Shown here: positions 2,546 through 63,887 of the stretch, piece by piece
Layout of the letters: every line of letters begins with the position of its first letter
Position numbering within the stretch: the stretch's first letter is position 1
From: a virus
Lineage: Duplodnaviria > Caudoviricetes
Reading direction: 5' to 3' (one strand)
Virus record (IMG/VR): IMGVR_UViG_3300020045_002727
Coordinates: 1-64,000 of that record
Length of the DNA stretch: 64,000 nucleotides
Program-made: the position numbers and the translations under genes
Notes under the pieces: model-generated
Database searches by the model: none
Told to the model about the DNA's origin: nothing
What the model saw: only the letters and a program-made list of their open reading frames with translations

Positions 2546-2821
2546 ATGATATTAAAGAAACTAGATGTCAGTAGAGCAGTGTGTGACCACTTACTGTCTG
2601 AAAATCACAAAGAAAGTCACAGAATGACTGTCGGTATAATCGTTGTATTCGCTGGTGTAGCAATATCAAAGATTCACACTCCTTTCACTATAGTCCACTT
2701 AATGTTGGATGCAGGTGGTTATTTTATTCACGCTATCGGTAGTATCCCGTTCATTGAGCATATCTCAAATACACTCAAAGAGAAAAAGGAAGAAGTTAAT
2801 AATGAATCAAAACAATCATGA
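2546..2821 (+). CDS. small membrane protein
   Basis: Two hydrophobic segments. Confidence 0.6.
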   Translation: MILKKLDVSRAVCDHLLSENHKESHRMTVGIIVVFAGVAISKIHTPFTIVHLMLDAGGYFIHAIGSIPFIEHISNTLKEKKEEVNNESKQS

Positions 2822-22620: not shown

Positions 22621-22651
22621 TTGGAGGGTATTAAAATTTATTATATCTTTG
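22621..22651 (+). promoter_or_regulatory. promoter of tRNA array 1
   Basis: TTG at 22621, TATCTTTG at 22644-22651, 20-nt spacer. Confidence 0.78.
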
Positions 22652-22655
22652 CCTC

Positions 22656-22757
22656 ATGAAAATAATCAGACTGCATATAATAATAGCACTTCTAACATTA
22701 GAAGTATTAGTTCAAGACCCTCATATGGGTCATGAGGTAGCGTGTTTAATGGTGTAA
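22656..22757 (+). CDS. putative leader ORF (33 aa MKIIRLHIIIALLTLEVLVQDPHMGHEVACLMV)
   Basis: Hand-translated; lies between the promoter and a terminator hairpin. Confidence 0.35.
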   Translation: MKIIRLHIIIALLTLEVLVQDPHMGHEVACLMV

Positions 22758-22780
22758 TAATTTTATGCTAAATATATACT

Positions 22781-22812
22781 AAGCCTCCTCTCGAAAGACT
22801 GGAGGCTTTTTT
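22781..22812 (+). terminator. intrinsic terminator/attenuator before tRNA array 1
   Basis: AAGCCTCC-TCTCGAAAGACT-GGAGGCTT followed by a T run. Confidence 0.8.
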
Positions 22813-22858
22813 ATTCGGTTTTTAATAGGTTGACCGAGATAAAAATAACTTATTATTT

Positions 22859-22946
22859 CTAGGTGTGAAGGCAATTGGAAGCCGACTCGTTTTGGAAACG
22901 AGAAGTAGTTAATAGCTCAATGCAGGTTCGAGTCCTGTCACTTAGA
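22859..22946 (+). tRNA. tRNA-Pro(TGG) with long variable arm
   Basis: Acceptor CTAGGTG/CACTTAG, CTCGT-TTTGGAA-ACGAG, ~19-nt variable region, T arm GCAGG-TTCGAGT-CCTGT. Confidence 0.85.
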
Positions 22947-22955
22947 CAATATTTT

Positions 22956-23027
22956 GCTCCCATCGTCTAGCGGTTAGGACATCAGGTTTTCGACCTGAGA
23001 ACGAGGTTTCGACTACCTCTGGGAGTA
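22956..23027 (+). tRNA. tRNA-Glu(TTC)
   Basis: GCTCCCA/TGGGAGT, TCAGG-TTTTCGA-CCTGA. Confidence 0.9.
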
Positions 23028-23072
23028 CATAGAGATACTTAGCCTTTAACTCTTTAAAAAGCAAGGTACTTT

Positions 23073-23144
23073 TGCACCATCGTATAACGGCTAGTACAAT
23101 TGCCTTTGAAGCAATTAGCATAGGTTCGATTCCTTTTGGTGCAA
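23073..23144 (+). tRNA. tRNA-Gln(TTG)
   Basis: TGCACCA/TGGTGCA, ATTGC-CTTTGAA-GCAAT. Confidence 0.92.
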
Positions 23145-23151
23145 CAAACAT

Positions 23152-23226
23152 GGTGATTGTAGCTGAATTGGTTAAAGCCTCTGATTGTGATTCAGAAGAT
23201 TAAGGGTTCGAGTCCCTTCTTTCACA
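23152..23226 (+). tRNA. tRNA-His(GTG)
   Basis: TCTGA-TTGTGAT-TCAGA; encoded G-1; two T.T mismatches in acceptor stem. Confidence 0.82.
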
Positions 23227-23231
23227 CTAAA

Positions 23232-23313
23232 GCTGATGTGAGTTAAAAGCGAATGGCAGAGCATCTCCCCTTAGAAGGGAGGACTTTTGAGGGTTCAAAT
23301 CCCTCCAACAGCA
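23232..23313 (+). tRNA. tRNA-Leu(TAG), atypical (short variable region, enlarged D region)
   Basis: GCTGATG/CAACAGC, CTCCC-CTTAGAA-GGGAG, GAGGG-TTCAAAT-CCCTC. Confidence 0.75.
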
Positions 23314-23318
23314 CTACT

Positions 23319-23390
23319 TTCTGATTAGTTCAATGGATAGAACAGGTGATTACGAATCATCAAATACAAGTTCGAGTCTTGTATCGGGAA
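23319..23390 (+). tRNA. tRNA-Arg(ACG)
   Basis: TTCTGAT/ATCGGGA, GGTGA-TTACGAA-TCATC. Confidence 0.9.
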
Positions 23391-23395
23391 CAATA

Positions 23396-23474
23396 GGGGT
23401 CATGGTGAAACGGTAAACACGCAGGTCTTAAAAATCTGTGCTTCGGCTTGTGGGTTCAACTCCCACTTTCCCCA
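23396..23474 (+). tRNA. tRNA-Leu(TAA)
   Basis: CAGGT-CTTAAAA-ATCTG, GC-TTCG-GC variable arm; two acceptor mismatches. Confidence 0.85.
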
Positions 23475-23500
23475 CAAAAGTTAAAATATTCACAAAATAT

Positions 23501-23531
23501 TTGCACATGTAAATTATTTGTAATATCTTTG
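23501..23531 (+). promoter_or_regulatory. internal promoter in tRNA array 1
   Basis: TTGCACA at 23501, TATCTTTG at 23524-23531, 20-nt spacer. Confidence 0.8.
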
Positions 23532-23541
23532 CTTCATAATA

Positions 23542-23573
23542 AAACGAATAGTTCAGTTGATAGGGAACAATTT
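23542..23573 (+). repeat. 32-nt dispersed repeat, copy 2
   Basis: AAACGAATAGTTCAGTTGATAGGGAACAATTT. Confidence 0.9.
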
Positions 23574-23579
23574 AAAATT

Positions 23580-23652
23580 TGGTATATAGCTCAATTGGTA
23601 GAGCATCTCCCTGATACGGAGAAGGGTATAGGTTCGAGTCCTATTGTACCAA
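23580..23652 (+). tRNA. tRNA-Ile(GAT)
   Basis: TGGTATA/TGTACCA, TCTCC-CTGATAC-GGAGA. Confidence 0.93.
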
Positions 23653-23667
23653 CAATATTAAATAAAG

Positions 23668-24168
23668 ATGATTAGAAATTCAAAACAAGTAGAGTTAACA
23701 AAATTAGCTTATAATAAAGGATATAGAGTTTTAGAAAATGGAGATGTGATAGGACTTAGAGGTAAGAAATTAAATCTTTTTGAAAACAGTAAAGGATATT
23801 ATTGTTTCACTATAAGAAGAAAAGATAAATGCCCTACTTATACATTTGTTCATAAATTAAAAGCCTATCAATTATTTGGAGATGAATGTTTTAATGAAGG
23901 AATTGTAATTAGACATTTTAATGGTAACAATAAAGATAACTCAGATATTAATATTAAAATTGGAACTCAATTTGATAACATGATGGATATGACACCATTA
24001 CAGAGAAAGTTAAATGCGAGTAGTCCTATTCATAATCATTCTGAAATATTGAAAGATAGAGAATCTGGAATGACATATAGAGAAATACAAGAAAAATACA
24101 ATATTTCATCTAAAGGAACAATTAGTTTTATTGTAAACAAATCAATGAAGAAAGAAAAACTAAAATAA
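23668..24168 (+). CDS. HNH homing endonuclease inserted in the tRNA array
   Basis: FVHKL, IRHFNGNNKDNSDINI..GTQFDN HNH-like core; C-terminal HTH. Confidence 0.8.
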   Translation: MIRNSKQVELTKLAYNKGYRVLENGDVIGLRGKKLNLFENSKGYYCFTIRRKDKCPTYTFVHKLKAYQLFGDECFNEGIVIRHFNGNNKDNSDINIKIGTQFDNMMDMTPLQRKLNASSPIHNHSEILKDRESGMTYREIQEKYNISSKGTISFIVNKSMKKEKLK

Positions 24169-24180
24169 ATGTTAAAATAG

Positions 24181-24211
24181 TTGCAAGGTAATATTTTTTG
24201 ATATATCTTTG
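24181..24211 (+). promoter_or_regulatory. promoter restarting the tRNA array after the HNH gene
   Basis: TTGCA at 24181, TATCTTTG at 24204-24211, 20-nt spacer. Confidence 0.8.
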
Positions 24212-24222
24212 TACCATAATAT

Positions 24223-24306
24223 AGCGAGGTAGTCAGTAGATGGTAGCTTGTGAGGCTCATAACCTCATGTCGAAAGACCCCGTGGGTTCGAGTCCCACTC
24301 TCGCAA
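24223..24306 (+). tRNA. tRNA-Met(CAT), initiator-like, with long variable arm
   Basis: A1.A72 mismatch, TGAGG-CTCATAA-CCTCA, variable arm GTC-GAAA-GAC. Confidence 0.8.
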
Positions 24307-24311
24307 CAAGA

Positions 24312-24368
24312 TTTGTCATCGTTTTTTAAAATTAAGGATTAATAAGTGACGGCTCGGAAAGACGAGCA
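24312..24368 (+). ncRNA. structured RNA, candidate skipping-rope-like motif
   Basis: GTCAT/GTGAC stem around an AT-rich linker, then GCTCG-GAAAGA-CGAGC; family name from memory only. Confidence 0.5.
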
Positions 24369-24371
24369 ATT

Positions 24372-24443
24372 GGTCTATTGGAGTAGTGGTAACTGTACTA
24401 GCTTGTCACGCTAGGGTCGGGGGTTCGATTCCCCCATAGACCG
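24372..24443 (+). tRNA. tRNA-Asp(GTC)
   Basis: GGTCTAT/ATAGACC, CTAGC-TTGTCAC-GCTAG, G73. Confidence 0.93.
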
Positions 24444-24482
24444 CAAAAGTTTTATAAGATTTTCCTTTGATAAAATCTAAAC

Positions 24483-24556
24483 GCCTTAATAGCTCAGTCG
24501 GTTAGAGCATCTCATTTGTAACGAGAAGGTCGTAGGTTCAAACCCTACTTTTGGCT
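24483..24556 (+). tRNA. tRNA-Thr(TGT)
   Basis: Loop TTTGTAA; acceptor GCCTTAA/TTTTGGC with two T.T mismatches. Confidence 0.85.
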
Positions 24557-24640
24557 CTATTTTAGAAAACATTAATCCTATGGTCGGATGTGAGAACCAT
24601 ATAGCCGTATTTAAAAAACTCACAATGTTTTCTAAAAGAG
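24555..24640 (+). ncRNA. uncharacterised pseudoknotted RNA
   Basis: 14-bp closing stem TTTTAGAAAACATT/AATGTTTTCTAAAA; inner TATGGT/ACCATA hairpin whose loop can pair with CTCAC and CCG. Confidence 0.6.
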
Positions 24641-24642
24641 TA

Positions 24643-24755
24643 AGCTCGATTAGTGTAATGGTAACACGCAGCAAATCCCAGCTGAAAGAGAGTCATAGAG
24701 TAGAAATAATCACTTTATGATGAAACATAACAGGTTCGATTCCTGTATCAAGCTC
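24643..24755 (+). ncRNA. tRNA-Gly-derived tRNA-like RNA with aberrant anticodon loop and ~45-nt insertion
   Basis: GCTCGAT/ATCAAGC plus U73, GTGT/ACAC D stem, CAGC-AAATCCCA-GCTG, extra 9-bp hairpin, perfect T arm. Confidence 0.7.
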
Positions 24756-24802
24756 AAATCGATTGGTTGTGATGACGAGGAGGTCGATGCCTCAATTACA
24801 AT

Positions 24803-24874
24803 CGTGTGTTCGTCTAGTGGTCAAGGACGGTGACAAGTGCGTTGCAAACATGGGTTCAAATCCCATACACACAT
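24803..24874 (+). ncRNA. tRNA-shaped RNA with 6-nt anticodon-position loop
   Basis: GTGTGT/ACACAC acceptor, GTCTAGTGGTCAAGGAC D arm, GTGAC-AAGTGC-GTTGC, ATGGG-TTCAAAT-CCCAT. Confidence 0.7.
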
Positions 24875-24880
24875 CAAATA

Positions 24881-24981
24881 GTCTATTAATAAAAGTTATA
24901 TCAATGACACATAACAACGTGATTAACTTAGGATATGAGAATGTAAGTTCTCCACATAGTAAACCGATAAAATTAATAGAC
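24881..24981 (+). ncRNA. uncharacterised multibranch RNA
   Basis: GTCTATTAAT/ATTAATAGAC closing stem; inner AAGTTA/TAACTT and GAGAA/TTCTC hairpins. Confidence 0.45.
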
Positions 24982-24985
24982 ATAT

Positions 24986-25058
24986 ATCCTTATAGCTTAA
25001 ATGGAAAAGCCTCTGATTTCTAATCAGACGAGTACAGGTTCAAATCCTGTTAGGGATA
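24986..25058 (+). tRNA. tRNA-Arg(TCT)
   Basis: ATCCTTA/TAGGGAT, TCTGA-TTTCTAA-TCAGA. Confidence 0.9.
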
Positions 25059-25062
25059 CAAA

Positions 25063-25161
25063 GGGAGATGATAGCGATTTTGGGAAAGGTGAGTTGACTC
25101 CTCATCCGTATTCAGGTTGCCACCATGCAACTGGTGCTGAGTATGTAGCTACATATCTCCC
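25063..25161 (+). ncRNA. uncharacterised GC-rich junction RNA
   Basis: GGGAGAT/ATCTCCC closing stem; GTGAG/CTCAT and TATTCAG/CTGAGTA plus GTTGC/GCAAC arms. Confidence 0.55.
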
Positions 25162-25168
25162 CTATTAG

Positions 25169-25242
25169 TGCCATTTAGCTCAGTTGGTTAGAGCAGTCCC
25201 CTCATAAGGGAAAGGTCACAGGTTCGAGTCCTGTAGTGGCAA
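25169..25242 (+). tRNA. tRNA with CAT anticodon (elongator Met or Ile2, not resolved)
   Basis: TGCCATT/AGTGGCA, TCCC-CTCATAA-GGGA. Confidence 0.88.
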
Positions 25243-25432
25243 CAAAAAGTCAGGGTAACACCTGATTTAATTTTAAGTATTAATGTAAAAAAATTTACAG
25301 TTATGTATAGTAAGATAATTAAAGGTAAGAAAGTTAAAACTATAAAGTATTCTAAACCATACAGTAGTAGTCAACTATCAGCAATGATGGAATTAACTGA
25401 TATATTTGAACGTAAAATAAAAAAGCTCAGAA

Positions 25433-25657: not shown

Positions 25658-26010
25658 ATTATAAGGAAACAATTTTAATTCCTACATCAGTGTTGTTGTC
25701 TAAATTATGCTCTGAGATAGATTCGTATTTTTATTCATTCGGTCAAGATTTACCATCTAAGAATAAGATTCAGAAGTGGTTGAGGGATGAATGGGATGTG
25801 GACATGAGTGTTCATTTAAACGGTATGTGTGGGATTAACATAGATAGTGGTGAAGTGACTAAGAATTACGGTGGTCATTATATTTACAAAGGTGATGTGT
25901 ACATGCTTGGTTTAACACCGTTTATAACATCTCACGAGGAAGCGCAGGAAACGATTATAAGATTAATATTAACTAAATTATTGAAAGAATATGATAACAA
26001 CGATTTATAA
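25654..26010 (+). CDS. hypothetical protein
   Basis: ATGA overlap. Confidence 0.65.
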   Translation: MNYKETILIPTSVLLSKLCSEIDSYFYSFGQDLPSKNKIQKWLRDEWDVDMSVHLNGMCGINIDSGEVTKNYGGHYIYKGDVYMLGLTPFITSHEEAQETIIRLILTKLLKEYDNNDL

Positions 26011-27073
26011 AAAAGATTCCAATGGTAAAGTTCGATACATCACCATTGGTAATTTCGGAGCAGTAATAACTCAACAATCTGGTATTGTAGGTTCTGACAA
26101 ATTTGTAGAACACTCTAAAACAGCTACTGGAAAGAACGTTAGAAGAGCAAATGAAACTTCACCAGAATATCAAGCTGAACTTGAAGTTACAGCATGGGTT
26201 AAGGATAAATTAACCAAAGGTTATTTTAGGACAATAGAGGAAACAAAATCAGCCGAGGTAGTACTACCTATGTTAGCAAAAGATTTCTTCAAGGAACGTC
26301 ACAAAATTGACTGGAATAAAGATGTGATAGTGGTTCAACCAAAGTTGGATGGGATGAGATGTTTAGCATTCGTTTCAGCCGATGGTAAAGTAGAGCTTGT
26401 ATCACGAGCTGGGAAGAAGATTGAGAACATGATGCATATTGAGAAAGAGCTGTCAACACTGGGTGTGGATGTGATTCTTGATGGTGAATTATATGTTCAT
26501 GGTGAAGGATTCCAGACTAATATGTCATACGTTAAAAAATATGTTGAAGGGAAGTCGGAGAGGATTATTTTTAATGTTTATGATATGGTTAGTGATAGAC
26601 CTTATTTATCTAGGATTGATAAAGTTAAAACTATCATCGACCATTTGAAAAAAGTAAGACCTTTATTTTACAGCACTGTTGGAACAGAGGATGAACTCAA
26701 ACAACATTTTACAATTTACATAAAAGAAGGATACGAAGGCGCAATGGTCAAAATATCTAAATCTGGCTACAAGTCCAACGCCCGTAGTTCCGAACTATTA
26801 AAGTACAAAAAGTTCATCGACATCCAACTACCAATCAAAGACATCATTCCAGCAGACCAAAGACCTACATGGGGAATCCCAGTGTACTATTGGGAAGGAG
26901 CTGATGATGACACTTTGAAATCTGGTACAAAAATGAGTCACGAAGAACGTGAGGACTTGTTGACCAACAAAGATAAATACATCGGACAGATGGCAGAGGT
27001 TAGATTTTTTGAATATTCAGATGCTGGAGTACCGAGGTTTCCAGTGACTGTAGGTATTAGACTTGATAAATAG
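25991..27073 (+). CDS. ATP-dependent DNA ligase with WGR-like N-terminus
   Basis: QPKLDGMRC, LDGELY, FNVYD, EGYEGAMVK, LLKYK, VRFFE...GVPRFP. Confidence 0.93.
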   Translation: MITTIYKKDSNGKVRYITIGNFGAVITQQSGIVGSDKFVEHSKTATGKNVRRANETSPEYQAELEVTAWVKDKLTKGYFRTIEETKSAEVVLPMLAKDFFKERHKIDWNKDVIVVQPKLDGMRCLAFVSADGKVELVSRAGKKIENMMHIEKELSTLGVDVILDGELYVHGEGFQTNMSYVKKYVEGKSERIIFNVYDMVSDRPYLSRIDKVKTIIDHLKKVRPLFYSTVGTEDELKQHFTIYIKEGYEGAMVKISKSGYKSNARSSELLKYKKFIDIQLPIKDIIPADQRPTWGIPVYYWEGADDDTLKSGTKMSHEEREDLLTNKDKYIGQMAEVRFFEYSDAGVPRFPVTVGIRLDK

Positions 27074-60716: not shown

Positions 60717-60762
60717 CAAAGATAATAAAAAAGGTCTAACCAACTTTATTGATTAGACCTTG
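60717..60762 (-). terminator. terminator of tRNA array 2 overlapping a TATCTTTG promoter
   Basis: AAGGTCTAA/TTAGACCTT hairpin, T run, then TATCTTTGCA. Confidence 0.75.
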
Positions 60763-60765
60763 TTG

Positions 60766-60836
60766 AAATCATATTGGGAGTCGAACCCAAACCTTTAATT
60801 TTGCAGACTAAATGCTTAACCGTCAGCCTTATGATT
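60766..60836 (-). tRNA. tRNA-Cys(GCA)
   Basis: AATCATA/TATGATT, TTAGT-CTGCAAA-ATTAA, U73. Confidence 0.88.
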
Positions 60837-60838
60837 TG

Positions 60839-60911
60839 TGGGGCAGGTGAGAATCGAACTCACTCCTCTGGTTTTTCAGACCAACGCTTCTACCAAGTTA
60901 GCTTCTCCCCC
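60839..60911 (-). tRNA. tRNA-Phe(GAA)
   Basis: TTGGT-CTGAAAA-ACCAG, GTGAG-TTCGATT-CTCAC. Confidence 0.9.
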
Positions 60912-60962
60912 AGTATAGCCTTAATCAGTTATAAACAATGTTTATAGCCTTTTAAGGTTTTG

Positions 60963-61031
60963 CACAACCCCAAGGAATCGAACCTTGTCCTACACTTTTG
61001 GAGAGTGTTTGGCTGCCATAGCCTGAGAAGT
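60963..61031 (-). tRNA. tRNA-Trp(CCA)
   Basis: ACACT-CTCCAAA-AGTGT; weak acceptor stem ACTTCTC/GGGTTGT. Confidence 0.78.
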
Positions 61032-61036
61032 AGTTG

Positions 61037-61108
61037 CTGCTCCTAATGGACTCGAACCATTATAAACTGATTAACAGTCAGCCGTAATTACCTTTATACG
61101 AAAGAGCA
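61037..61108 (-). tRNA. tRNA-Asn(GTT)
   Basis: TGCTCTT/AGGAGCA, GCTGA-CTGTTAA-TCAGT, G73. Confidence 0.92.
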
Positions 61109-61113
61109 TTTTG

Positions 61114-61198
61114 CAGAAAGTAAAGGTCTCGAACCCTATGCGAATAAACGCACCACAATCTTAGCAGGATGTGCTGACACCTAGTCAGTCTACTTTCT
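61114..61198 (-). tRNA. tRNA-Ser(GCT)
   Basis: AGAAAGT/ACTTTCT, loop CTGCTAA, variable arm GTGCG/CGCAT; imperfect anticodon stem. Confidence 0.82.
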
Positions 61199-61203
61199 AT
61201 TTG

Positions 61204-61289
61204 CAGAAGATAGAGAAATCGAATCCCCATCAGGTACTACCCGATGCCATGGGGTTCAAGCCCACTTTGTCACCTTGACGGTATCTTCT
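61204..61289 (-). tRNA. tRNA-Ser(TGA)
   Basis: AGAAGAT/ATCTTCT, GTGGG-CTTGAAC-CCCAT, long variable arm. Confidence 0.88.
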
Positions 61290-61365
61290 ATAATCGTATC
61301 GAGACTTCTGACGTAAGCAGTGTATATAATACTTACCGAATTAACTCCCTTTATGAGACTCAACG

Positions 61366-61446
61366 TGGGGAGGTGTGGACTCGAACCACTCCCTTGCGGA
61401 CGGATTTTACAGACCCGTTGCTAAATCCAATTAGCTTTACTACCCC
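61366..61446 (-). tRNA. tRNA-Tyr(GTA)
   Basis: ACGGGT-CTGTAAA-ATCCGT, CC-GCAA-GG variable arm. Confidence 0.9.
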
Positions 61447-61454
61447 AAAATGAT

Positions 61455-61483
61455 AAAGCCTCCAATCTTTCGAGAGGAGGCTT
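61455..61483 (-). terminator. terminator/attenuator hairpin before tRNA array 2
   Basis: AAGCCTCCTCTCGAAAGATTGGAGGCTTT; one nt different from the 22781 hairpin. Confidence 0.75.
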
Positions 61484-61511
61484 AAATTTTCAAACTATAA
61501 ATAGCTTCACA

Positions 61512-61583
61512 TTAAGACATGTCCTCTCGATAGCCATTCCAGCTATAGAAATTAAACGAGTTATATGTGTTACAATTTTTCAT
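61512..61583 (-). CDS. putative leader peptide MKNCNTYNSFNFYSWNGYREDMS
   Basis: Hand-translated 23-aa ORF ending ~30 nt before the hairpin. Confidence 0.45.
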   Translation of the reverse strand: MKNCNTYNSFNFYSWNGYREDMS

Positions 61584-61605: not shown

Positions 61606-61899
61606 TTAAACAGTTGTTGCAATTTCGATGTTTGGTGCAATTTCATCCAATACGAATGTGTATGCTCCAGTTGCTTTCACTATTGTTGCAGTGAACACAA
61701 AAATTTTGTAAGGTGTTTTACCTGTTAAAACTACTTTAGCTGCTGTAATGTCTGTTACCAATGCTGGATTTTTAGCATAAGTTTCTTCAACTTCCCTTAC
61801 TTTTGCAATAGCCGCTTCAACAGCTTCATAAGTTAAAACTCCTGCGCTTGTACATGAGAATGTAATATCTCTTAATCCTGTTCCGTAAACTCCTGCCAT
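61606..61899 (-). CDS. small protein with own promoter (TATCTTTG at 61929-61936), highly expressed-type codons
   Basis: ORF track; GCT/ACA/GTA-rich like the capsid gene. Confidence 0.7.
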   Translation of the reverse strand: MAGVYGTGLRDITFSCTSAGVLTYEAVEAAIAKVREVEETYAKNPALVTDITAAKVVLTGKTPYKIFVFTATIVKATGAYTFVLDEIAPNIEIATTV

Positions 61900-61967
61900 A
61901 ATATTTTTCCTTTAGTTATTATTTTCAGCAAAGATAATAAAAATTTTACACGATGTTTTTAATTTTA

Positions 61968-62918: not shown

Positions 62919-63887
62919 TTAGTTGTTTAAATTGTTAAAGTACCACACTCTAGCTTTATTTGATATAGCCGAGGTCACTTTTTTAATTTCTAGGTTGTTC
63001 TGTTCGATTGTATCTTTTTCTTCCTTTAAAACGTCTGAAATAACCCATCTTAAAAATTCACCAGTATTCTTCTGGGTTGTTTCAATTTGCATTTCTTTCA
63101 TGTAAGCTAGACCTTGTTCTAAACGATTGGTTGTACAAACGTTATCAACAAAATCGCTGATTTTACTTATTTGCTCAACATCAACTGAATTTAGTGTTTT
63201 AACTTTTGATACAGAATGTTTCTCACCTTTTGATTTGAATTTAAGCTCTGGGTTTGTTGTGCATGTGAATACAATACCTTCACCAATTCCAGATACACCA
63301 AATGCTTTGGCTACAGGACATTCATTTTCAACTTGAAGAGTCATTTCGATTAGCTTGTTTTGAGATAGCTCTGGGTTGTTGAAATCAATGTCGATTGAGA
63401 ATGTTTGAAATTGATTAATGTTGTAAATTTCTTGATTGGTGTCTGATACATTCGGTATGTTCACCCATTCATCATCGATTTTAATTGCAAAAACTACAAA
63501 CATTTTAGGTAATCCTGTGATACCTACACCTTTTTGGATATTACCACCACACCATTCACCGTAAATAGCCATGTAGTCTTTGTATTCAAAATCTGCAAAT
63601 AACATTGACAAGTCTTTCTGACTCATCTCAGCATAGAATCCAGCGTTATCAGAACCTTCCGATAAAACCCTCTCCCTTGATTGAAACTCTGTTCGACCAT
63701 CTGCGTATCGCACAATGGCGGCATTAGTCCCGTGGAGCTTTACAGTCCCCTCGAATCTTAATGTTGGGTAGGGTGATGTGTGAGCATAAATTGCATTACC
63801 TTCTTCGTCTAACCCTTGGAAATCATGTTGTGTTTTTACTTTGTGAACAATGTTTCTAAATTGTTCAGTACTTGGATATTTTTTCAT
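62919..63887 (-). CDS. RNA ligase, Rnl2 family
   Basis: KLHGTN (motif I), FQSR, YGEWCG, FVVFAI, GEGIV, FKSKGEK. Confidence 0.88.
   Translation of the reverse strand: MKKYPSTEQFRNIVHKVKTQHDFQGLDEEGNAIYAHTSPYPTLRFEGTVKLHGTNAAIVRYADGRTEFQSRERVLSEGSDNAGFYAEMSQKDLSMLFADFEYKDYMAIYGEWCGGNIQKGVGITGLPKMFVVFAIKIDDEWVNIPNVSDTNQEIYNINQFQTFSIDIDFNNPELSQNKLIEMTLQVENECPVAKAFGVSGIGEGIVFTCTTNPELKFKSKGEKHSVSKVKTLNSVDVEQISKISDFVDNVCTTNRLEQGLAYMKEMQIETTQKNTGEFLRWVISDVLKEEKDTIEQNNLEIKKVTSAISNKARVWYFNNLNN

Follow-up and report, generated by a model that had tools for sequence, protein, structure and literature searches.

The window analysed here is a stretch of 64,000 nt, positions 1 to 64,000 of the IMG/VR record IMGVR_UViG_3300020045_002727, from an AT-rich Caudoviricetes genome of 74,135 bp with direct terminal repeats. 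On its minus strand, a gene for a protein of 97 residues is followed after 22 nt by a leader ORF, an intrinsic terminator, and seven tRNA genes that we refer to as array 2, and a strong terminator closes the unit (Table 1). An initial annotation had located the promoter, the 97-residue ORF, the 22-nt gap, the leader, the hairpin, and the tRNA genes, and all of its coordinates proved correct. The promoter is recognized by sequence as a Bacteroidota sigma-A type −7 box, and its activity is inferred. In flavobacteria, this box occupies positions −12 to −5 (PMC9723704); the predicted start site of the unit comprising the 97-residue gene, leader, and tRNAs lies at about 61924. The 12-mer TTATTATCTTTG is found repeatedly ahead of genes in the window. 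The 97-residue protein has no Pfam or PHROG match, though it belongs to a conserved family, and its AF2 model was poor (pLDDT 47) and was left unused. An A-rich region lies upstream of the leader ORF, the translation of which is inferred.

The terminator ends immediately before tRNA-Tyr, which starts at 61446, and no promoter separates the two; all relatives are arranged likewise. Its hairpin, AAGCCUCC...GGAGGCUU, spans 61483–61456. Because the U tract that follows, TTTATCATTTT, is interrupted, basal read-through at array 2 may be high. The hairpin had been described as the second copy of a shared element with a weaker U tract, and this holds: the 74,135-bp genome contains a 24-nt core in just two places, 22783–22806 (+) and 61481–61458 (−), shuffled sequences contain none, and the U tract of the array-1 copy is strong. 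No other IMG/VR contig contains the exact 24-mer. A candidate internal promoter, TATAGTTTG, at about 61503–61495 in the interval between leader and terminator, was rejected by inspection, its spacing being wrong and its sequence not conserved.

The seven tRNAs named in the initial annotation (Tyr, Ser, Ser, Asn, Trp, Phe, and Cys) are all present. ARAGORN at default settings found those for Tyr, Asn, Trp, Phe, and Cys. The two tRNA-Ser genes, tga at 61289–61203 and gct at 61198–61113, were found only at a relaxed threshold; they form good class-II cloverleaves and are both also present in the arrays of relatives. Between tRNA-Tyr and tRNA-Ser(tga) lies a spacer of about 75 nt (window 61290–61364, minus strand), possibly what remains of a tRNA or else a small RNA; the gap is similar in the related locus L026 and is 6–12 nt in L028 and L029. 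Five of the seven tRNAs of array 2 (60765–61446, minus strand) read UNN codons (Tyr, Ser-UCN, Trp, Phe, and Cys), the class that carries i6A37-type modification in bacteria.

A sister unit, with its own leader ORF and its own copy of the hairpin, precedes array 1 on the plus strand. Since the −7 box is located at −12 to −5 in flavobacteria (PMC9723704), the mRNA of this unit is predicted to be leaderless, starting at its AUG; leaderless translation is inferred here from promoter geometry alone. Leaderless mRNAs are reported to make up 5.5% of the mRNAs in Flavobacterium (PMC9723704). The same spacing between box and ATG is seen in the related loci L033 and L046 and in the Cellulophaga phage phi4:1. 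The window's array 1 does not contain the Ala, Lys, Gly, and Val tRNAs that L033, phi4:1, and a second Cellulophaga phage, phi38:1, carry where the window has its HNH gene, and it includes a tRNA-shaped gene without a readable anticodon (window 24803–24875, plus strand; relaxed ARAGORN).

Table 1. Coordinates of features in the window and of mis-called CDS in the two reference phage genomes
Feature	Coordinates	Strand	Remarks
−7 box, Bacteroidota sigma-A type	61929..61936	−	TATCTTTG; promoter activity inferred from sequence
97-residue ORF	61606..61899	−	function unknown; upstream of leader and co-transcribed with it
Leader peptide ORF	61512..61583	−	23 codons and TAA; homologous ORFs in relatives checked by translation
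Control-codon run	61530..61577	−	codons 3–18, upstream of purine tract; reads NCNTYNSFNFYSWNGY
Predicted 1:2 hairpin (anti-antiterminator)	61525..61551	−	full-length fold, z −3.9
Region 2, antiterminator 5′ strand	61522..61530	−	UCGAGAGGA; pairs over 9 bp with 61478–61470
Region 3, terminator 5′ arm and part of loop	61470..61478	−	UCCUCUCGA; partner of region 2
Intrinsic terminator	61447..61483	−	8-bp GC-rich stem and 2-bp inner stem, then tract UUUAUCAUUUU
Array 2	60765..61446	−	tRNA-Tyr(gta), Ser(tga), Ser(gct), Asn(gtt), Trp(cca), Phe(gaa), Cys(gca)
Strong terminator closing array-2 unit	60731..60761	−	promoter of next gene directly after
−7 box of sister unit	22644..22651	+	ATG begins 5 nt after G
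Leader 1 ORF	22656..22757	+	33 codons
Terminator of sister unit	22781..22815	+	same hairpin with one stem-neutral change; strong U tract
Array 1	22859..25243	+	Pro Glu Gln His Arg Leu Ile Met Asp Thr Arg Met; HNH endonuclease gene inside
Mis-called CDS, phi38:1	L057:1200–1331, 1769–1888, 2380–2562, 2649–2780		
Mis-called CDS, phi38:1	L058:1454–1561		
Mis-called CDS, phi4:1	L060:1390–1509		

Leader composition and the tRNAs downstream

The window leader had been credited with five Asn, three Tyr, three Ser, two Phe, one Trp, and one Cys codons, or 15 of its 23, and this count is right. With the initiator set aside, 15 of 22 residues are among the six amino acids of array 2, a share of 0.68. Against a background of 491 ATG ORFs of 15–45 codons, taken from all six frames of the genome, in which the mean share of these residues is 0.30 (sd 0.12), only a single ORF reaches the value of the leader. 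The idea that the match is no better than chance, which would have refuted the proposed relationship, is thus rejected. Within the control run, 14 of 16 codons specify Asn, Cys, Tyr, Ser, Phe, or Trp (about 3e-6 in a binomial calculation by hand at p = 0.30), and serine is encoded there by both the UCN and the AGY box, matching the two tRNA-Ser genes.

Relatives of this unit were taken from the DNA around members of the small family of the 97-residue protein, which include L026/L027 (92% identity), L028 (66%), L029/L030/L039 (62%), L037 (46%), and the more distant L044. Their layout is that of the window: the 97-residue gene, an ORF of 23–29 codons beginning ATG AAA, a terminator 7–12 nt before tRNA-Tyr, and the same order of tRNAs. 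The leader peptide of L026 equals that of the window. Over the stretch between codon 3 and the purine tract, Tyr, Ser, Asn, Trp, Phe, and Cys account for 12/14 codons in both L028 and L029, 12/13 in L037, and 13/15 in L044. Residue order is shuffled from lineage to lineage but composition is maintained; in L037 the Cys codon sits elsewhere, and no array-2 leader lacks any of the six amino acids, even the rare Trp and Cys. The ATG-AAA start and the frame are preserved across indels. This combination of a kept frame and start, a scrambled order, and a kept composition is hard to explain without translation of the leader, for which it provides indirect, comparative evidence.

Two loci that carry the 97-residue gene without an array, L031 and L041, show nothing but a plain terminator, with no counterpart of the leader ORF; in L031 the only short ORF runs through the terminator. 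L031 retains the leader start motif ATTATGAA directly ahead of an L029-like terminator (L031:3664–3700), which may mean that this locus once had an array and a leader body and lost them by deletion.

A single-sequence search of viral contigs with the 97-residue gene found nothing, a profile search of metagenome contigs yielded one locus, L037, and the distant homologues P0132 and P0133 are on short contigs without arrays. A search with the DNA pattern of the leader start returned only the L029 phage and one chance match. When the RNA ligase encoded near the array-2 unit was used as the anchor, none of 23 related loci had an adjacent tRNA array. Complete relatives at about 60% identity also have few or no tRNAs. 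On both counts, the arrays are lineage-specific cargo.

Leader 1 is only moderately unusual when considered alone: 23 of its 32 residues are among the ten amino acids of array 1, all ten of which are represented, and 28 of the 491 background ORFs score equally high. Relatives of array 1 were located through a neighbouring PD-(D/E)XK gene. L035 has an array limited to Pro, Glu, Gln, His, and Arg and a leader reading ...LHSEQRQPE; in L033, Leu is added to a set of this type, and the leader reads ...LHIERLQQEPE. In L046, two tRNA-Leu genes go with eight Leu codons in the leader, and the leader of L056 reads ...LHIELQEQP. L032, which has no array, has no leader. Judged by these sequences, the case for leader 1 is stronger than its moderate chance score.

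The same design is present in cultured phages. The Pervagoviridae member phi38:1 (NC_021796.1; L057, L058; 72.5 kb) was reached through similarity at the tRNA level. It is also the source of the closest cultured relative of the PD-(D/E)XK protein of the window, at 50% identity, which indicates that the window phage, a marine one, is Pervagoviridae-like and flavobacterial. phi38:1 does not encode an RNA polymerase (PMC5335546). It contains three units, each with a repeated promoter, a leader, a terminator, and tRNAs. The leader of unit 1 includes LLHQEPLEQLRLP, a run of 13 consecutive residues from the set supplied by the tRNAs that follow, Pro, Glu, Gln, His, Leu, and Arg(acg); by hand calculation with the residue frequencies of the window proteome, the chance of such a run is about 5e-8. 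In unit 2, which units 1 and 3 flank, 17 of 20 control codons are for Tyr, Ser, Asn, Trp, Phe, or Cys, and the tRNAs are Tyr, Ser, Ser, Asn, Trp, Phe, and Cys. The leader of unit 3 contains KTIMNIATDIRTKGVK and precedes (Ala) Lys, Ile, Gly, Met, Asp, Thr, Val, and Arg(tct).

An unrelated 146-kb myovirus, phi4:1 (NC_021788.1; L060), has three units before the same three tRNA sets. A leader containing QRLHLQELEQP precedes its Pro/Glu/Gln/His/Leu/Arg-type set; the leader of its Lys/Ile/Gly-type set has a GTG start and 16 consecutive in-set residues (TKTGITVIDKTKGARA); and in its Tyr/Ser/Asn/Trp/Phe/Cys leader, 13/15 codons up to the purine tract and 13/14 of the run are in set. The codon set of each unit is near-exclusive in both phages. 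Arg codons fit the isoacceptor wherever the array has only one, with CGA/CGT accompanying acg (phi38:1 unit 1, L035, and L046) and AGA accompanying tct (phi38:1 unit 3). With these phages included, array-2-type leaders have 23–32 codons, start ATG AAA, and are followed by a terminator 7–12 nt before tRNA-Tyr. A promoter repeat of about 40–45 nt is found before all three leaders of phi38:1 and before those of units 1 and 3 of phi4:1; upstream of phi4:1 unit 2 the sequence differs. The occurrence of the same tRNA order and sensors in a podovirus family and in an unrelated myovirus suggests that the cassettes move horizontally.

In total, the design was found in 16 units: window array 2 and four diverged metagenomic lineages, five sister-array units (including window 22656–22815), and three units each in phi38:1 and phi4:1. 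The leaders are partly related by descent, so these are not 16 independent trials. Comparison of leader composition with downstream tRNA identity across related phages had been suggested as a check, and the composition does follow tRNA content in these units, which represent at least eight lineages and two families.

These comparisons bear on whether the ORF has any role at all. The hairpin could be the plain terminator of the upstream gene and the ORF incidental, with tRNAs arising from leaky read-through or from a timed phage antitermination factor. L031 and L041 do show that a plain terminator is the usual end of genes of the 97-residue family, and the units have no expression data behind them. 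We nevertheless regard it as very unlikely: it leaves unexplained a composition reached by 1 in 491 ORFs, its recurrence in 16 units, its switching with the tRNA set, and the isoacceptor-specific Arg codons. Moreover, the units of phi38:1 and phi4:1 have their own promoter directly before the leader, with no upstream gene to terminate.

It is also conceivable, at the very edge of what we would entertain, that the short ORFs encode functional micropeptides, aromatic/Cys-rich or charged, whose composition reflects peptide function. The ORFs are conserved, and three of them (gp066 and gp070 of phi38:1 and gp075 of phi4:1) are annotated as proteins. However, order is scrambled with composition kept, the three peptide classes differ exactly as the downstream tRNAs do, and the C-terminal parts follow the needs of RNA pairing and not those of a peptide motif. 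The leaders in the reference genomes are unannotated, have wrong starts (gp066, gp070, and gp075), or lie under calls on the opposite strand. The CDS annotated there as "hypothetical protein" also include calls over missed tRNA genes (Pro, Glu, and Trp).

Predicted folds of the leader RNA

The window leader is predicted to have the classic layout of 1:2, 2:3, and 3:4 pairings, as in the trp leader. In the full-length fold, the 1:2 hairpin overlaps the Phe-Tyr-Ser-Trp-Asn codons and occupies the GAGA of region 2, and the terminator is still formed. If the upstream part is removed, as a ribosome stalled there would bring about, or if the 3′ arm of the terminator has not yet been made, the 9-bp 2:3 helix becomes the minimum-energy structure (z −3.7). 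The stop codon starts 8 nt past the last base of region 2, and with only 7 nt between them a terminating ribosome would cover region 2. This distance ranges from 7 to 33 nt across units. Because of this variable spacing, masking of region 2 by a terminating ribosome cannot hold unchanged in L037.

For comparison of antiterminators, each unit was folded from the purine tract to the terminator loop with the 3′ arm omitted. In every unit, the minimum-energy structure joins the terminator 5′ arm to the purine tract found at the leader's 3′ end, even though the terminator sequences differ; z ranges from −5.3 to −0.5. The 2:3 helix is CGA/AGGGAG with CUCCUU/UCG in L037 (z −5.1), CGA/CAGGGU with GCCCUG/UCG in L044 (z −4.8), ACAGGAUC with GAUCCUGU in phi4:1 (z −5.3), and GGGGAGG with CCUCCCC in phi38:1 unit 3 (z −3.5). 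When tracts and arms were swapped in a three-by-three comparison, the cognate tract was best for each arm (−13.1, −12.6, and −8.6 kcal/mol vs −2.7 to −12.1); the cognate minihelix of the window accounts for the −13.1 kcal/mol, compared with −7.2 and −2.7 for the non-cognate ones. The G-rich tract of L029 pairs better with the L044 arm than with its own. The 2:3 helix is weak in L028 and L029, with 6 bp against terminators of 13 bp (z −0.5 and −1.2), and in these two units the long terminators win at equilibrium. In window copy 1 (array 1), 2:3 amounts to just 4 bp, GAGG:CCUC. No upstream partner for the terminator 5′ arm was found in the array-less L031 and L041 (z +1.0 and −0.2).

A 1:2 pairing is predicted in the window, L044, L046, L056, and phi38:1 unit 2. 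It takes up part of region 2 only, and the minimum-energy fold of phi38:1 unit 3 does not include it. Relatives have a covarying inner hairpin in the position that corresponds to the 1:2 of the window. An automatic consensus fold of seven leaders recovered the terminator and the inner hairpin but not 2:3, the alignment of the variable part being too poor.

These folds leave room for control of the array by leader translation through a route other than 2:3, such as protection or processing of the precursor, Rho-type polarity, or hindrance of terminator folding by the ribosome. The codon match is strong, L028, L029, and window copy 1 have only a weak predicted antiterminator, and the stop codon does not stand at a constant distance from region 2. 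On the other hand, a canonical GC stem and U tract stand 7–50 nt before the first tRNA in every unit, and the purine tract is complementary to the 5′ arm and changes with it, a partner that array-less controls do not have. Such a route is therefore unlikely in our view, yet it is the alternative that we would keep in mind.

Full-length leaders fold well below shuffled controls, with z of −3.6 to −5.7. Full-length folds also predict a long AU-rich helix between the start-codon region and a segment just past the stop codon (window 61590–61495, minus strand; L028:4300–4395; L029:4295–4380), which would close the entire leader and hide the AUG.

Both features could be expected if the leader were a structured noncoding RNA, either a small RNA or a T-box-like riboswitch that senses tRNA. 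No Rfam family was matched at gathering level, the only matches at E <= 5 being sub-threshold ones to the PyrG, Phe, and PyrR leaders, which are of the attenuator type. No T-box motif was detected, as Rfam gave no T-box match even at E <= 5. In addition, frame and start codon are kept across indels, which is needless in a noncoding RNA, and we give this possibility next to no credence. An incidental ORF, a micropeptide, and a riboswitch are each inadequate because composition switches with cargo, order is scrambled, and frame is conserved, all together.

Proposed attenuation as a route to tRNA supply

We consider it likely that these units are governed by ribosome-mediated (leader-peptide) transcription attenuation acting as a feedback sensor of tRNA supply. 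The anatomy of the units, the statistical match, the conservation, and the predicted alternative pairings are in hand; translation, stalling, and regulated termination are inferred, with no expression data available. The suggestion that the logic of amino acid attenuators has been applied to tRNA genes is in this way supported by composition, conservation, and predicted alternative pairings, with the regulation itself remaining an inference.

In the proposed mechanism, host RNA polymerase would start at the TATCTTTG promoter, transcribe the 97-residue gene, and enter the leader. A ribosome would translate the 23-codon leader, the first 18 codons of which are nearly all for Asn, Cys, Tyr, Ser, Phe, and Trp. 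With fast decoding, the ribosome at the stop codon would cover region 2, the terminator (3:4) would form, and transcription would end just before tRNA-Tyr. If charged tRNA is scarce, slow decoding could cause the ribosome to stall on the control run, with 1:2 opened. Region 2, once freed, would pair as 2:3 with the terminator 5′ arm, and read-through by the polymerase would yield the seven tRNAs. The tRNAs made would relieve the stall, giving a negative-feedback homeostat for decoding capacity, and the sister unit, with its different codon set, would control array 1. Whether this extends to a homeostat in which the full tRNA set is shared out among two or three cassettes, any one of them being activated only by ribosomes stalling on its own codons, and in which cassettes and sensors move between unrelated families, is less certain; we judge that fuller version slightly better supported than not.

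The mechanism itself is classical. The trp, his, phe, leu, thr, and ilv attenuators of Enterobacteria include multi-amino-acid control in the thr and ilv leaders. The phage leaders share with them a short ORF enriched in regulatory codons, an intrinsic terminator, predicted 2:3 and 3:4 pairings that exclude one another, joined in some units by a predicted 1:2, and selection of the antiterminator by a stalled ribosome, which is inferred here. To our knowledge, the genes regulated by described leader-peptide attenuators all function in amino acid biosynthesis or aminoacylation. The seven genes proposed to be regulated here are for tRNAs and belong to neither category. Unlike in the classical attenuators, the cargo is tRNA genes rather than enzymes; what is sensed and what is produced would thus be one class of molecule, making the feedback direct. 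The phage leaders also differ in reading six to nine amino acids each and in being viral, within Bacteroidota-type transcription units, some of which have mRNAs predicted to be leaderless.

Among cellular systems, the pheM leader attenuates the Phe-tRNA synthetase genes in pheMST of E. coli. This resembles the phage units in that a gene of the translation apparatus serving the same amino acid is attenuated; it differs in that the gene is for a synthetase, a single amino acid is involved, and the system is cellular. T-boxes likewise make the choice between terminator and antiterminator, ahead of genes with a role in translation, depend on the state of one particular tRNA, but they bind uncharged tRNA directly and need neither ribosome nor ORF. 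Candidates for leader-peptide attenuation have been described in Flavobacterium psychrophilum upstream of host amino acid biosynthesis operons (PMC9723704). They share the host phylum, promoter type, and proposed mechanism with the phage units, and the difference lies in their control of host biosynthesis operons.

We found no report in the literature of leader-peptide control of tRNA genes, and the transcriptome paper on phi38:1 makes no mention of leader-peptide control (PMC5335546). The novelty lies in tRNA genes as cargo, in feedback that is direct, in codon sets covering several amino acids, and in cassettes that are viral and horizontally shared.

The tRNA clusters of T4, T5, and mycobacteriophages are believed to keep translation going in late infection or once host tRNAs have been lost. 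The regulation of phage tRNA genes is largely unknown, and the reason for carrying tRNAs is debated. We know of no leader-peptide control in tRNA arrays of the T4, T5, or mycobacteriophage type, nor are we aware of any earlier case in which attenuation controls tRNA genes. If the model is correct, phages gauge separately for each codon set whether tRNAs suffice and react accordingly; in the fuller version, a phage could also detect and repair the loss of particular host tRNAs, for instance through host shut-off or anticodon-nuclease defences. Leader composition set against downstream anticodons would be a searchable signature across phage and cellular tRNA arrays. Because phi38:1 and phi4:1 grow in culture on Cellulophaga baltica and RNA-seq exists for phi38:1, the model is directly testable. 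Several "hypothetical proteins" in these two genomes would need new annotation.

Other genes lie within or beside the arrays. The HNH homing-endonuclease gene in array 1 (window 23668–24168, plus strand) matches PHROG HNH families with E 8.5e-14. An Rnl2-type RNA ligase is encoded about 1 kb upstream of the array-2 unit (window 62919–63887, minus strand) and an ATP-dependent DNA ligase just after array 1 (window 25991–27073, plus strand). In L035, an RNA ligase and a PNK-like kinase/phosphatase adjoin the array. The presence of ligases and a PNK-like enzyme beside arrays hints at a theme of tRNA repair.
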